A DNA stretch of 48,031 bases from Candidatus Omnitrophota bacterium (GTDB lineage: Bacteria > Omnitrophota > Gorgyraeia > Gygaellales > Profunditerraquicolaceae). The DNA lies in NCBI GenBank assembly GCA_026387385.1, contig JAPLLU010000091.1, positions 1 through 48,031 on the forward strand. The letters run 5' to 3'. Shown piece by piece: positions 6,438-31,005 of this stretch. Numbering within the stretch: position 1 is the stretch's first letter; each line of letters opens with the position of its first letter. A program made the position numbers and the translations under genes. The notes under the pieces were generated by a model. The model ran no database searches. It was not told the DNA's origin and saw nothing but the letters and a program-made list of their open reading frames with translations.

Positions 6438-6624
6438 TTAAATGAGCACTTGATTTATGGAGCCTATAAAGGCGACATAAATCAATCTTCTATGAGACAC
6501 TATCCTGTTTGTGCGAATTTAACCCCTCACTCAGAGACGTTATAGAGTGTAATTCGATATCTGAGTGAGGGGTGAGTTCGGCCAAATAACTTATGTCGCA
6601 CTACGCGCTCCATAAGTTATGGCC
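6438..6624 (+). repeat. Family F tripartite structured repeat (copy F-C)
   Basis: ttaaatgagc + hairpin (ttgatTTATGGAGC..GCGACATAAatcaa) + gcgaattt + hairpin (aacccctcactcaga..tctgagtgaggggt) + gagttcgg + hairpin (ataacTTATGTCGC..gCTCCATAAgttat). It fills the ilvN-ilvC gap and abuts the ilvC RBS. Confidence 0.88.
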
Positions 6625-19370: not shown

Positions 19371-19634
19371 TTATTCCTCGCTGGTTATTACCTTCTCTAA
19401 TTCCGATATGGCCACAGTGGCATCATCGCCTTCGGCTTCTATAATAATTTGACTGCCTTTTTCTGCGCCCAACATCAGGATGCCCATGATAGACTTACCG
19501 TTTACTTCCTCTTCATCGTTTCTAACCGTTATACGCGCATCAAATTTATTTGCCACCTGCACAAATAATGCCGCCGGCCTTGCGTGTAAGCCCTGTTTAT
19601 TTTTTACTGTTAACTTCTTTTTGACTAAACCCAT
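19371..19634 (-). CDS. ptsH: Phosphocarrier protein HPr/NPr
   Basis: MGLVKKKLTVKNKQGLHARPAALFV carries the active-site His. The ORF track extends to a GTG at 19697, but that extension is encoded by the left hairpin of repeat F-A. ATG at 19632-19634 gives a canonical 88-aa HPr. Confidence 0.85.
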   Translation of the reverse strand: MGLVKKKLTVKNKQGLHARPAALFVQVANKFDARITVRNDEEEVNGKSIMGILMLGAEKGSQIIIEAEGDDATVAISELEKVITSEE

Positions 19635-19635
19635 G

Positions 19636-19861
19636 TTAATGAGCCCACAACTTACGTAAACATTAGTGAACGTAAGTTGTTTGGGCGAATTGAGCACCTA
19701 AAGCTTTGGTTTGACGAAATCCCTGTGAGCCTAAGCGAACAAGGATAACCCCACACTAGAGCAGTAATAATCAAATCTATTGCTTTCTGGGTGTGGGATA
19801 AGTTCGGACAGATAAGTTATGTCGCATATATCTTTTGCATAAAGCTCCATAACTTATGTCC
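19636..19861 (+). repeat. Family F tripartite structured repeat (copy F-A), with an extra ~50-nt insert
   Basis: ttaatgagc + hairpin (cccacaacttacg..cgtaagttgtttggg) + gcgaatt + insert + hairpin (ccccacac..gtgtggg) + ataagttcggac + hairpin (ataagTTATGTCGC..gCTCCATAActtat) + gtcc. Confidence 0.88.
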
Positions 19862-19865
19862 TTAC

Positions 19866-21131
19866 TTAAAACTCCTCAATAAATCCTAGGATGACTTTTG
19901 CCAATTTCTCAGAGTCATGCCTTATCACATCGCTTATAGCAACAGTGTCTTCTTCTATCACGCGATAACCCATCCTCGCTATTTCTTCTGTGTCGCAATT
20001 AACCAGATGGGATTTCTCCTGCTCATAACGCTTCAGTGTCTCTTTAGGGATTTCTCCTGAATTTACTATACAGTAATCAAAAATACGCGGATGACTGTGC
20101 TTTATAAGCGCTCTTATATGATCTGCGGTATCATAGCCGTCCGTCTCTCCTGGTTGAGTCATTATATTGCATACGTACATCTTAATTGCGCTTGATGCCA
20201 CAATACTGTCGGTAATCTCTTTTATCAAAAGGTTAGGTATAATACTGGTATATAGCGAACCAGGGCCTAAAACTATAACCTGCGCCTCTTCAATTGCCTT
20301 TAATGCCTCTGGAGTTGCCTGATATTCAAATGGTCTAAGAAAAACTTTTTTTATTGGTATACCCTTTTTAGGAATCTTATTTTCTCCTTCAGTAGTTGAG
20401 CCGTCTTTATGTTCTGCCACCAATACCACATTATTCAATGTCGAAGGAATCACCTGCCCTCTTAGGGCTAATACTCGGCTAGTTTCTTTAATCGCCTTCT
20501 CGAAATCTCCGGTCAATTGAGTCATCACAGTAATAAAAAGATTTCCGAAGTTATGCCCGGACATCTCTGAATCTTTGCCAAACCTAAATTGGAATAAATC
20601 ACGCATCAATGTCGGTGCATCAGCTAAAGCCACCAGACAGTTACGTATATCTCCGGGGGGCAGTATATCAAATTGCTGTCTCAAGCGCCCGGAGGAACCG
20701 CCGTCATCGGCAACCGTAACGATGGCCGTGATATTATAGGTGTATTCCTTAAGCCCGCTTAAAATTACTGATAAGCCGGTACCGCCTCCTACAGTTACAA
20801 CTTTTGGGCCGCGGGCAAGCTGTCTTTTTTGATATAAAATATCTACGAGTTGGACATTTTTTTCAGAAGGACCAAATTCTCTTATGAAAAAACGCATCAA
20901 CCTCTTGATACCTAGAATTAAAATTATTATGCCGGAAATCAATACTATTGCATTTAGTGCCTGTACTATCCGCAATTCTTCTGTCCGTAAACCTAGTGAC
21001 CCGATAATTATAAGAATAACCCCAAAGGCCGAAAGGGAAATCCAGCGTTTTATGCCTATGCCCGGATAAAACCACTTCAATACTATCCTGGCCTTAAGCC
21101 CCATTTTATTTACATCAAATCTTTTTCTCAT
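19866..21131 (-). CDS. YvcK/CofD-family (UPF0052, gluconeogenesis-factor-like) protein with an N-terminal two-helix membrane extension
   Basis: 421 aa: VVTVGGGTGLSVILSGLK, VADDGGSSGRLR, GPGSLYTSIIPNLL. Roughly the first 90 aa are hydrophobic. Confidence 0.82.
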   Translation of the reverse strand: MRKRFDVNKMGLKARIVLKWFYPGIGIKRWISLSAFGVILIIIGSLGLRTEELRIVQALNAIVLISGIIILILGIKRLMRFFIREFGPSEKNVQLVDILYQKRQLARGPKVVTVGGGTGLSVILSGLKEYTYNITAIVTVADDGGSSGRLRQQFDILPPGDIRNCLVALADAPTLMRDLFQFRFGKDSEMSGHNFGNLFITVMTQLTGDFEKAIKETSRVLALRGQVIPSTLNNVVLVAEHKDGSTTEGENKIPKKGIPIKKVFLRPFEYQATPEALKAIEEAQVIVLGPGSLYTSIIPNLLIKEITDSIVASSAIKMYVCNIMTQPGETDGYDTADHIRALIKHSHPRIFDYCIVNSGEIPKETLKRYEQEKSHLVNCDTEEIARMGYRVIEEDTVAISDVIRHDSEKLAKVILGFIEEF

Positions 21132-25487: not shown

Positions 25488-25623
25488 TTAATGAGCGCAT
25501 ACCTTATGGAGGCGATAGCCGACATAAGGTATATGCGCGAATTAACCCCACACCCAGAAAGCAATAGATTTGATTATTACTGCTGGGTGTGGGGTAAGTT
25601 CGGACGCTCCATAACTTATGTCC
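25488..25623 (+). repeat. Family F tripartite structured repeat (copy F-B)
   Basis: ttaatgagc + hairpin (gcataccTTATGGAGGC..GCCGACATAAggtatatgc) + gcgaatt + hairpin (aaccccacaccca..tgggtgtggggt) + aagttcggac + gCTCCATAActtatgtcc. Confidence 0.9.
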
Positions 25624-25627
25624 TCAT

Positions 25628-27418
25628 TTATCTACGTAATTCCTGCATCTGGTAAAGCCTTTTATATAATCCATCGCAGGTAATAAGAGATTCGTGATTG
25701 CCCTGCTCAACAATTCTCGATTCATTAATAACAATAATCCTATGCGCATTTCTTATTGTAGATAGCCTGTGCGCTATCACAAATACAGTGCGTCCTTTTA
25801 TAAGCCTATTTAGTGCTTCCTGGACAATACGCTCTGATTCTAAATCCAGCTGCGAAGTGGCTTCGTCTAAGATTAAAACAGGCGGATCCTTAAGTAAGGC
25901 GCGAGCAATTGCAATCCTCTGGCGCTCTCCCCCGGAAAGCCTCATGCCCCTATCACCGATAACTGTCTCATACCCACAAGGAAAATGCTCAATAAAATCA
26001 TGCGCGTAAGCCTCTTTTGCTGCCTTCTCTATATCCTGCAATGAGGCGCCTGGTTTACCATAAGCAATATTTGCCTTTATTGTATCATTAAAAAGTATAG
26101 TCTCCTGAGTAACTATGCCTATTTGTTGACGTAAGGATTTAAATGAAACCAGCCTTATATCCTTACCGTCAATTAATATCCTGCCTTTTTGGGGGTCGTA
26201 GAAACGGGGGATTAGGTCTACTAAAGTAGTCTTACCGCATCCGCTCGGACCAACTATGGCCAGTATTTCTCCTCTTTTTACTTCCAAATTTATTCCCTTT
26301 AGGATCTGCTGACTACCGTAGTTAAACCATACCTCCTCAAAAACTATATTGTTTTTGAATTCAGTTAACTCATCCGCATTTTCTTTTTCCGCAACTGATT
26401 GATGAGCATCTAATACTTCATAAATACGGCTACTGGCTGCCATGGCCTGCTGATTAGTGGCATTAACCTGGCTTAATTTTTTAAATGGCTTGACCAGTGA
26501 TAATAACGAACCTAAAAAAAGTCCGAATACCCCAAAAGAAAGCCTACCGGCAATAACCTCTTTGCCTCCCCAGAAAAATACAAATACCCCGGCAATGGCG
26601 CCTAAGAATTCCGTGGAGGGTCCTAAAATAAGATTACGTTTTATGGATTTCATGGCCACCTTATAATAATCGCGGTTGACCTGGTTAAATCTTTTTATCT
26701 CGTAATCTTCCATATTAAAGGCCTTAACAATCCTTACGCCTATGATTGTTTCGTAAAGTAGCGAATTCGTATCCGCTATCTTTTCCTGCCCCTTACGGGA
26801 TAATTTTCTTAACACCTTGCCCACCTTTATGATGGGAATACTTATGAGCGGTAAAAGTATCAGTGTGATTAGGGCAAGCTTAGCATAAATAAAGAATATT
26901 AACACAGTAAATAAAACTACCTGTAAACTTTGGTAGATTAAGTCCGTAGAGCCATAAGAAACCGCATTTTCTACAAGCCTTACATCATTGGTGATGCGTG
27001 AAATAAGCTCGCCTCCGCGTTTATGGGTAAAATAATCCATTGAAAGGGCCTGAAGCTTTGCATATAGTTTTGATTTTATATCTCTGACCACCCGTTGTCC
27101 GATGTCAGACATAAGATAGGTCTGTAAAAATCCGAATATCCCCTTAAGAAAAAAAAGAGCCAGGACTCCTATCGCCATGTATTTTAATAATACCATGGCT
27201 TCCGTATTATTTAACTTATCCACAAAACCGGCTAAAAAAGCGGGGAGCTTCGTAGGTACAATGATTTTCTGCTTGCTTAATACCTTATCAGCTAACGGAA
27301 CAATCATCGCAAGAGAGACTCCGTCAAATATTGCCGAAAAAAACATACAAATCCCTGCTAAGGTAAATAGGCTAAGGTAAGGCTTGACAAACTTAAGTAA
27401 TCTCAAATATTCGCGCAT
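25628..27418 (-). CDS. msbA: ABC transporter permease/ATPase, MsbA-like lipid A exporter
   Basis: 596 aa: six-TM domain plus NBD (GPSGCGKTT Walker A, LSGGERQRIAIARAL signature, LILDEATS Walker B). It lies next to an lpxB cluster. Confidence 0.8.
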   Translation of the reverse strand: MREYLRLLKFVKPYLSLFTLAGICMFFSAIFDGVSLAMIVPLADKVLSKQKIIVPTKLPAFLAGFVDKLNNTEAMVLLKYMAIGVLALFFLKGIFGFLQTYLMSDIGQRVVRDIKSKLYAKLQALSMDYFTHKRGGELISRITNDVRLVENAVSYGSTDLIYQSLQVVLFTVLIFFIYAKLALITLILLPLISIPIIKVGKVLRKLSRKGQEKIADTNSLLYETIIGVRIVKAFNMEDYEIKRFNQVNRDYYKVAMKSIKRNLILGPSTEFLGAIAGVFVFFWGGKEVIAGRLSFGVFGLFLGSLLSLVKPFKKLSQVNATNQQAMAASSRIYEVLDAHQSVAEKENADELTEFKNNIVFEEVWFNYGSQQILKGINLEVKRGEILAIVGPSGCGKTTLVDLIPRFYDPQKGRILIDGKDIRLVSFKSLRQQIGIVTQETILFNDTIKANIAYGKPGASLQDIEKAAKEAYAHDFIEHFPCGYETVIGDRGMRLSGGERQRIAIARALLKDPPVLILDEATSQLDLESERIVQEALNRLIKGRTVFVIAHRLSTIRNAHRIIVINESRIVEQGNHESLITCDGLYKRLYQMQELRR

Positions 27419-29832: not shown

Positions 29833-31005
29833 TTATAACGACTTTGCGATTGCAATGCGTTCGTCAACAGACGGATGGTCAAAGAAGAAAAATCTGATTA
29901 TAGGATGGGGATTTCTATCTGCGAGATTTTGGGAAGACAGCTTTTCCATCATAGAAATGAATGCCTCTTTTAAACCCGTTACTTTAAGCGCCTCTAAATC
30001 CGCATTTCTTTCGAATCTGCGGCTGATATAGTTCTCAAATGGCTGCATTACTATCCCGAAAATAACAAAATACATTAAAATAACCGGCAAGGCTGCAATA
30101 CCCCATAGTGATGACAGACGGAATATGCCCAGAACATAGTTGTTCGTCATAAATATAATATAAAAAGACAGCATTATAGCTAAAGAATTCACCAATATGA
30201 GCTTGACCAGGTGTCTCAACCTATAATGTGCAAATTCATGGGCCAGGATTACTTCAATCTCATCGTAACTATACTTATCCTTTAAGGTATCGCTTAATAT
30301 CACCCGTTTAGTAGCCCCTAAGCCCACAAAGGCGGCGTTTGCCTTGACTGTCTTTTTGCTAAAATCTACCTGAAAGACATCCAGAATCTTTACCCCGTTA
30401 GAAATCTTGTTGTTTTTTCTTGAAGCTTTGGTATTTCTAACGGGGTTTACCTTCATTTTATCTGCCAATTTTATTATGCGACCCCTTAACACCTCATCGG
30501 AAAGCCTCTCATATTTAAAGAATAAGGGGATAACTATAATCGGCACTAACTCTGCCATAATCAAACTAAAGAATATCCAGAATAAAGAAATTATCAACCA
30601 CCAGGTAAAGAAAAAGTGTCTTATTATATAATAAAAAGCGCTTATTAGGATAACGGCAATGATATATGATATAATGCCGGCTTTAATCTGATCTTTCAGC
30701 CAGCTAGCGACTTTCTGGTTGGATAGGCAGAACTTGCGTTCCAGGGTATATGAACGGTAAAAGTTTAGAGGAAAATTCAATAAGTAATATGCGAGGTAAA
30801 CTATAAAGATATAAGCGGAAACTGTTAGATAATTATTAGCTATAAACCCCGATAAGGCCTGAGCGAGAATTTTAGATAAACCTGAGGCCGCAAATACAAA
30901 AAGAAGCAAAAAAAGATAGACTATATCTATAATAGCCGTAGAGTATTTAAGGCGTGAGTATCTTTTGGCTTTGTCCGGCTGAACACCTTTACTAGGGCTA
31001 TCCAT
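29833..31005 (-). CDS. M48-family (Ste24/HtpX-like) zinc metalloprotease, carrying an in-frame palindromic-element insertion
   Basis: 390 aa, polytopic: HEFAHY (HExxH), NAAFVGLG..KRVILSDTL, FFFDHPSVDERI. Residues NPVRNTKASRKNNKISNG are encoded by hairpin G4. Confidence 0.85.
   Translation of the reverse strand: MDSPSKGVQPDKAKRYSRLKYSTAIIDIVYLFLLLFVFAASGLSKILAQALSGFIANNYLTVSAYIFIVYLAYYLLNFPLNFYRSYTLERKFCLSNQKVASWLKDQIKAGIISYIIAVILISAFYYIIRHFFFTWWLIISLFWIFFSLIMAELVPIIVIPLFFKYERLSDEVLRGRIIKLADKMKVNPVRNTKASRKNNKISNGVKILDVFQVDFSKKTVKANAAFVGLGATKRVILSDTLKDKYSYDEIEVILAHEFAHYRLRHLVKLILVNSLAIMLSFYIIFMTNNYVLGIFRLSSLWGIAALPVILMYFVIFGIVMQPFENYISRRFERNADLEALKVTGLKEAFISMMEKLSSQNLADRNPHPIIRFFFFDHPSVDERIAIAKSL
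30393..30445 (+). repeat. Family G short hairpin (copy G4) inside the M48 protease CDS
   Basis: ccccgttagaaat (30393-30405) / atttctaacgggg (30433-30445): a perfect 13-bp stem with the same sequence as the G1 outer stem and the same flanks, ta-CCCCG...CGGGG-tttac. Confidence 0.88.

Follow-up and report, generated by a model that had tools for sequence, protein, structure and literature searches.

Family F, a hairpin repeat at operon junctions of an Omnitrophota genome, carries its central cassette in either orientation between arms of fixed polarity

Results

Architecture of the family F elements

The window, by which we mean the whole 48,031-nt stretch of DNA that was analysed, belongs to a 1.57-Mb genome assembled in 149 contigs (39.7% G+C; 98% complete), whose PtsI has its best relatives exclusively among Omnitrophota MAGs. 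Copies of a non-coding repeat, which we call family F, lie at gene junctions of the window (Table 1). The first, F-A, spans the interval from the stop codon of a CofD-like gene (TAA, complement 19866-19868) to the start codon of the HPr gene (complement 19632-19634). The upstream gene is terminated by the first TAA of F-A, and a single base separates the end of the element from the start codon of the gene downstream. The second, F-B, follows an MsbA-like gene (stop codon, complement 25628-25630), and its P1 arm is shortened by a deletion. In the copies that we read, the 5' TAA of the element lies at the upstream stop codon and its 3' end adjoins the ribosome binding site or the start codon of the downstream gene.

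The anatomy of the family was deduced from an alignment of about 30 copies around the hairpin and from RNA folding of two of them, F-A and F-B. In the mRNA sense, the element is made of three consecutive hairpin modules: P1 (TAAGTGAGGAC..GTCCGAACTTA), a central cassette B (CCCC..GGGG) and P2 (TTAAATTCGCGC..GCGCTCATTTAA). What appear to be linkers are the basal stems of P1 and P2. Since P1 and P2 are related hairpins in mirror orientation, the element looks palindromic overall. Cassette B is about 49 nt long; its 12-bp ends are inverted and identical (CCCCACACCCAG or CCCCTCACYCAG) and enclose an asymmetric interior of 25 nt. It is flanked by TAA on both sides (GAATT TAA CCCC..GGGG TAA GTTCGG). 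The whole element measures 145-235 nt, and about 30 copies with this centre are present in the genome. Its termini, TTAAATGAGCGCATAACTTA and TAAGTTATGTCCTCACTTA, are inverted copies of each other, and comparison of a filled site in genome G054 (aaaaTAA[GTGAGG..CTCAT]TAAAATG) with the empty site in this genome (aaaaTAAATG) reveals a target-site duplication of TAA. With its terminal inverted repeats, small size, lack of coding sequence and multiple copies, the whole of family F has the features of a MITE, and it is a MITE-like element located at operon junctions. A search of Rfam returned nothing above chance at the central hairpin of F-A or F-B, the best match being mir-7331 with 26 bits for a cut-off of 100.

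Table 1. Coordinates of family F features in the window
Feature	Position	Strand	Evidence or remark
Third copy of family F, whole element	6438..6624		
Cassette of the third copy: stem CCCCTCACTCAG, L2-type loop	6523..6572	.	
F-A, whole family F element	19636..19868	-	RNA fold z = -6.1
P2 arm hairpin of F-A (TTAATGAGCCCACAACTTACG..CGTAAGTTGTTTGGGCGAATT)	19636..19691	-	same stem at the junction in G014 and L071
Z module of F-A: extra 55-nt hairpin module between B and P2	19692..19746	-	absent here in L071 and G014
Cassette B of F-A: outer stem CCCCACAC/GTGTGGGA, imperfect inner stem, L1 loop '+' relative to the arms	19749..19798	.	
38-nt block, exact reverse complement of 25547-25584	19760..19797	.	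BLAST
P1 arm hairpin of F-A, 5' module in the mRNA sense (plus-strand TAAGTTCGGAC..GTCCTTACTTAA)	19799..19868	-	sequence reading and fold
F-B, whole family F element after the MsbA-like gene	25488..25630	-	RNA fold z = -8.4
Cassette B of F-B: perfect 12-bp stem CCCCACACCCAG/CTGGGTGTGGGG, L1 loop '-' relative to the arms	25546..25594	.	

The centres of F-A and F-B are inverted between co-linear flanks

The central hairpin of F-A reads CCCCACAC TAGAG CAGTAATAATCAAATCTATTGCTTT CTGGGTGTGGGA, and that of F-B reads CCCCACACCCAG AAAGCAATAGATTTGATTATTACTG CTGGGTGTGGGG, the latter forming a DNA hairpin of -14.8 and -15.7 kcal/mol on its two strands. BLAST and direct reading agree that the 38-nt block of F-A, which comprises the loop and one stem arm, is 100% reverse-complementary to its counterpart on the opposite strand of F-B; the chance of such an identity is about 6e-23 for two given 38-mers. 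The right arms match each other directly, 19787-19809 being 96% identical to 25583-25605 over 23 nt and, past an indel, 19844-19868 being 92% identical to 25606-25630 over 25 nt. These matches bear out the claim of an earlier note on this DNA, according to which the centre is inverted between the two copies while the flanks stay co-linear. That note had placed both hairpins approximately right, its limits being 1-2 bases off those given in Table 1. It had also described the inverted segment as a loop of ~27 nt. The inversion itself stands, but, the 12-bp stem being perfectly palindromic, what was flipped cannot have been confined to the loop.

A repeat search also returned an inverted match of 70 nt (86%), which arises because the whole element is pseudo-dyad symmetric. 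Inversion of the whole element, posing as a flip of the loop, was ruled out by the polar markers of the element, all of which are co-linear in the two copies: the linkers (GAATT(T)AA versus TAAGTTCGG), the ends (TTAAATGAGC versus CCTCACTTA) and the types of arm hairpin.

Cassette B is randomly oriented between polar arms

The copies were placed in a common frame that puts the linker GAATT(T)AA to the left of B and TAAGTTCGG to its right. In this frame, 21 of 25 copies have minus-strand ORFs on both sides, i.e. they are transcribed from P1 to P2 (p = 9e-4). In the arm hairpins, the motif that closes the loop reads forward in 15 out of 15 informative left arms and reversed in 20 out of 20 right arms, with none of the 35 flipped. 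The central hairpin behaves differently (Fisher's test, central versus arm hairpins: 1e-6). A survey of the genomic F copies for the ratio of the two orientations, as the earlier note had proposed, gave 14 '+' and 14 '-' relative to the arms among 28 orientable copies. Three types of central loop were recognised, namely L1 (GCAGTAATAATCAAATCTATTGCTTTC; 9 '+' and 4 '-'), L2 (GAGACGTTATAGAGTATAATTCAGTATC; 5 and 6) and L3 (GCCAGCAAAAAAGATGGCTATGGGTTTC; 0 and 4). Relative to the transcript, the L1 and L2 loops together are nearly evenly distributed, at about 13:11. The central inversion is thus real and is general in family F beyond the pair F-A/F-B.

As the loops are too short for a tree-based count of flips, recurrence was judged from sequence identity within each orientation class and from tables of sub-lineages. 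Loop identity is 0.87 for same-orientation and 0.89 for opposite-orientation pairs of L1, and 0.85 for both kinds of pair in L2; arm identity, at 0.56-0.64, is far below these values. Stem allele and loop subtype are inherited together. Sub-lineage L1a (A-type stem CCCCACACCCAG, loop AAATC) is '+' in F-A and C74 and '-' in F-B and C133, with identical loops, and sub-lineage L1b (T-type stem CCCCTCACTCAG, loop AAGTC) is '+' in C20 and C94 and '-' in C59, C92 and the metagenome contig L064. The length variants of L2, of 28 and 29 nt, are likewise each present in both orientations. These data showed that the orientation of B is random, that the arms are fixed and that flips have recurred within sub-lineages. 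The imperfect inner stem (TAGAG...CTTAAG, with TAGAG by the CAGTAAT end) turns together with the loop, as seen when F-A, C112 and C99 are compared with L064, so the breakpoints lie within the outer 8-12 bp of the stem or at their outer ends.

A regulated switch is unlikely

The earlier note had proposed a flip bounded by the inverted-repeat stem, by site-specific or homologous inversion, and had raised the possibility of an invertible switch. The bounding by the stem holds, and the flip is recurrent rather than a one-off event, as indicated by the 14:14 ratio, by the two sub-lineages found both ways and by the data from other genera given below. The switch did not fare as well. A site-specific invertase driving a reversible, phase-variable switch would account for a segment that is bounded by a perfect 12-bp inverted repeat and found in both orientations, and the genome does encode tyrosine recombinases, two of them Xer-like (~300 aa) and one integrase-like. 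However, duplex synapsis by known invertases requires an interior much longer than 25 nt. The search for an invertase or recombinase that the note had also recommended detected no small invertase, be it a Hin/Gin-type serine or a Fim-type tyrosine enzyme, in the 98%-complete assembly; the only serine recombinase, of 541 aa, is of the large integrase type and lies beside a phage-type tyrosine integrase. No promoter-like or terminator-like site was found in the 25-nt interior of either hairpin, F-A or F-B, and orientation is random with respect to transcription. Moreover, an unrelated hairpin of another genus (G001, see below) behaves in the same way, and the conspecific strains compared at the bgl junction do not differ in orientation. 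We regard a regulated switch as unlikely and attach very little credence to an invertase as the agent of the flips.

Invertons such as Hin, Fim and the invertible promoters of gut Bacteroidales are also segments bounded by inverted repeats and found in both orientations. Known invertons are, however, about a hundred to several hundred bp long or more, carry a promoter or part of a coding sequence and depend on an invertase, and family F differs from them in all three respects.

The serine recombinase (C56:4769-6029, L040) and its neighbouring tyrosine integrase are the sole such pair in the assembly and probably belong to an integrated mobile element. An IHF site in the loop was considered and rejected by eye, since the ATCAA of L1 has its TTG one base too distant and L3 has no such site.

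An assembly or sequencing artefact at palindromes could be imagined, as the MAG is fragmented and a central hairpin is found no more than 300 nt away from 4 of its 298 contig ends. The 3' end of C133 and the 5' end of C48 overlap by ~140 nt inside an F element, which indicates that these contigs are adjacent and that the assembly was broken at the repeat. Nevertheless, the 12-bp stems are shorter than assembly k-mers, and the two orientations are seen again in assemblies that were produced independently, by different studies and for different genera, which makes the risk of an artefact practically negligible.

Modules differ between closely related strains

At the F-A junction, conspecific contigs that are 96-98% identical and come from five samples (L065-L069) carry no F element. 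They contain a 54-nt spacer rich in GGTTGAG-like repeats instead; the strains differ here in the entire intergenic cassette. In strains of 96-98% identity, no element is present at the QueD and S8/L6 junctions either, and the copies of C43 and C133 are, like F-A, absent from conspecific strains. Reciprocally, strain L064 has an F element at a site that is empty in this genome (C144); L064 was the only contig found in a metagenome scan for the L1 loop. F elements are thus polymorphic within the species. The presence/absence loci are located at C43:5979, at C133:4109 and near position 9640 of C144, and were compared with L084-L089 and L064. The F copy between the genes of ribosomal proteins S8 and L6 is found in this genome only, when compared with conspecific strains.

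Relatives at a slightly greater distance retain the scaffold around other centres. In L071, whose flanking DNA is 91% identical, the P1 and P2 hairpins at the F-A junction are nearly identical to those of F-A (26/27 positions in the visible half of P1), while the central hairpin is unrelated (CCCAGCACTTATTTGGG..) and the Z module is missing. Genome G014 has the same P2 stem at this junction, an L3-like B and no Z. An F-like centre is present there in only 1 of 80 other species, which suggests that the scaffold was inherited and the cassette replaced. From these alignments, the cassette of F-A was probably replaced inside a conserved scaffold. The earlier note had envisaged, besides inversion between the stem arms, insertion of the hairpin as a sub-module in either orientation; L071, with the same arm hairpins around an unrelated centre, directly supports this route. 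At the F-B and RluA junctions, relatives at 92-94% identity likewise have F variants with different hairpins between the same linkers.

The junction upstream of the beta-glucosidase gene (bgl; C88:5403) is the only locus recovered where conspecific contigs share the same B. Strains of 96% identity have B, Z and P2 in common with this genome there, in the same orientation; they differ from it in the modules on the 5' side and in several bases of the inner stem (CCCAG versus TAGAG). Across L091/L093, L090 and L092 (96%, 92% and 88% identity, respectively), hairpin modules of this junction have been gained, lost or replaced whole between conserved linkers, and up to five hairpins stand in a row in relatives of 92-96% identity (L090, L091).

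Family F in other genera and possible insertion by a transposase

We searched 98 genera of the taxonomic family for the stem pattern CCCCWCACYCAG N22-32 CTGRGTGWGGGG and found it in 10 of them, the reversed-pattern control giving zero. The stem sequence is conserved in these 10 genera and the loops are variable. G041 and G089 each contain B in both orientations relative to the arms. G001 has the same scaffold with an unrelated central hairpin, whose stem is of 17 bp (CCCTTGACATTTTTTGA), and the loops of two of its copies, L057 and L058, are 90% identical in reverse complement and 59% identical in direct alignment. Orientation behaviour therefore follows position and architecture rather than a particular sequence.

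At three junctions compared between genera, a co-linear alignment of ~2 kb is combined with a reverse-strand BLAST match at the hairpin: upstream of GalT (G061 versus G014), upstream of pfkA (G041 versus this genome) and between S8 and L6 (G014 versus this genome). Two other junction pairs have the same orientation (F-A versus G014, and C46 versus G015). Upstream of GalT, G061 and G014 have a truncated element in common whose hairpin is inverted, 21 of 26 positions being identical in reverse complement; the fast turnover of the elements also allows its replacement. The inverted pairs were first considered as proof of inversion in situ and then downgraded, given how fast gain, loss and replacement proceed between strains at the same junctions. 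They may represent independent insertions or replacements.

Solo B hairpins, devoid of arms, are found in G014 and G041, some of them flanked by TA/TA or TG/TG. An FMN riboswitch of G041 (RF00050, 80 bits; L031 905-1100) carries a CCCCACACCCAG..CTGGGTGTGGGG hairpin, which replaces the native CCCC..GGGG peripheral stem seen at the orthologous site of this genome (C129).

The main rival to the explanation that we prefer (see below) is that B is an independently transposing mini-MITE, its stem serving as terminal inverted repeat and a transposase inserting it either way at TA/TAA sites, including the TAA at the centre of the scaffold. The TAA..TAA direct repeats around B and the solo hairpins, one of them inside the riboswitch, fit insertion of this type equally well as our own explanation. 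It also agrees with the TAA duplication made by the whole F element, with the conservation of the stem but not of the loops across the 10 genera, with the co-inheritance of stem allele and loop subtype and with the gain, loss and replacement of modules between conspecific strains. On the other hand, no F scaffold lacking its central hairpin was found among 101 genomes, the 16 matches to the corresponding pattern being all random coding sequence and fewer than those of the reversed-pattern control. This genome has no solo L1, L2 or L3 hairpin, and the solo hairpin of the riboswitch takes the place of a native stem, with no matching repeat at its flanks. Profile searches of the assembly for transposases of the Y1 (PF01797), IS4/IS5-type DDE (PF01609) and IS630-type DDE (PF13358) families were negative, which is weak evidence since MAGs often lack their IS copies. 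We consider such a mini-element possible but rather doubtful.

Discussion

A proposed orientation-blind exchange of palindromic cassettes

The explanation to which we give most weight, albeit with modest confidence, is that B is a discrete palindromic cassette that does not keep its orientation when it is copied anew or joined again by means of its identical inverted ends, the source being either B itself or another copy. As the two ends of B are indistinguishable, any copying or re-joining anchored at the ends would be blind to orientation. The donor could be the cassette itself, if a strand or template switch took place inside the hairpin while the DNA was being replicated or repaired, or the resident cassette could be overwritten from another copy. 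Over evolutionary time, either process would randomise B relative to the polar arms. Overwriting would explain why the cassettes of the genome are far more alike than the arms, why the cassette of F-A is identical to three others though its scaffold appears old, and why the centre is never empty. The process would probably be template switching or copying at short homologies rather than the work of an enzyme, and the flips would be evolutionary events, not a physiological switch. Against this explanation, no flip in situ was caught between very close strains: at the bgl junction, the one place where conspecific contigs share the same B (96% identity), its orientation is unchanged. Furthermore, a generic strand switching driven by hairpins should also flip the arm hairpins, since their stems are about as long. 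They never do, which requires either selection on the arms or a special status of B.

One could also link the flips to mobilisation, with hairpin-primed or nick-and-unfold copying that would invert the asymmetric interior of the central palindrome at each round. The 1:1 ratio would follow, and the hairpin affected is precisely the one on the dyad axis. The four insertions that are polymorphic within the species (F-A, C43, C133 and L064) are all of type L1, two in each orientation. Yet a search for a HUH/Y1 enzyme was negative, inversion does not extend to the arms beyond the stem, and within an element one arm does not pair with the other. We deem a flip-flop of this kind improbable. The terminal hairpins of parvoviruses, at the ends of a linear single-stranded viral genome on which a Rep nickase acts, exist in flip and flop forms. 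They resemble family F in that the asymmetric interior of a palindromic hairpin occurs in two inverted-complement forms at a ratio of ~1:1. In family F, however, the hairpin is internal to a chromosomal repeat and no Rep-type nickase was found.

Relation to known systems

The flip of B appears as a variant of known phenomena, combining hairpin-loop inversion with mosaic palindromic repeats. 'Minute inversions' in non-coding hairpins of plastids were reportedly described by Kelchner and Wendel in 1996. Inversions of hairpin loops by template switching are known as Ripley-type quasi-palindrome events (Loytynoja and Goldman 2017, PMC5453318; Monttinen and Loytynoja 2022, PMC8794818), and both loop inversion and the perfecting of a stem in one step have been documented (PMC8794818). 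As in family F, a loop enclosed by a perfect inverted repeat gives way to its exact reverse complement of equal length, recurrence and homoplasy are observed, and stems remain perfectly paired through multi-base changes. The inverted loops of rRNA are, however, mostly of 4 nt and at most of ~8 nt (PMC8794818), whereas the interior of B measures 25 nt and is part of a multi-copy mobile element. Family F also differs in that its cassette is exchanged between copies and that the neighbouring arm hairpins never flip.

Mosaic palindromic repeats include the BIMEs of E. coli, made of REP/PU units in alternating orientation, and likewise the Correia elements of Neisseria and the palindromic elements of Rickettsia. 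Family F shares with them short, non-coding, strongly folding intergenic sequences built of modules and conserved linkers, a location between the genes of operons, a high copy number and the lack of an internal transposase. Unlike REP/BIME, it has no associated RAYT/Y1 enzyme (no match to PF01797), and we noticed no GTAG-type REP head in the elements read by eye. We found no literature on such elements in Omnitrophota and, to our knowledge, a three-hairpin scaffold with an orientation-random central cassette and TAA duplication has not been described before.

Implications

If orientation-blind copying is true, family F is a natural, multi-copy record of this process at a palindrome of bacterial DNA, with dozens of loci per genome and a scaffold of fixed polarity as internal control. 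It could be used to measure the frequency, and to identify the machinery, of the inversion and overwriting of hairpin-bounded sequences. It also follows that segments bounded by inverted repeats and found in two orientations across the copies of a repeat should not be taken for phase-variable switches without population data.

The wider system of module swapping may matter more than the flip itself. Many gene junctions are occupied by its modules, which provide stop codons, lie against start codons and vary among strains of 96-98% identity. This is relevant to the question of how mobile, structured DNA is tolerated and put to use in small, streamlined genomes. A bolder idea, which we regard as unlikely although worth stating, is that these modules represent an undescribed type of mobile DNA. 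Its units would be cassettes consisting of a hairpin alone (CCCC..GGGG, with TA/TAA on either side), which would be exchanged, gained and turned around whole between conserved linkers at operon junctions on a within-species timescale, by an unrecognised enzyme or by structure-driven copying that reads only the palindromic ends. The random orientation of B would then be the trace of this activity.

A second family of CCCC..GGGG hairpins (TACCCCGTTA..TAACGGGGT), flanked by TTA/TTTA, is present at 30393-30445 of the window and near position 8560 of C9, so that elements made of nothing but a hairpin and flanked by TA-rich target repeats may form a broader class.
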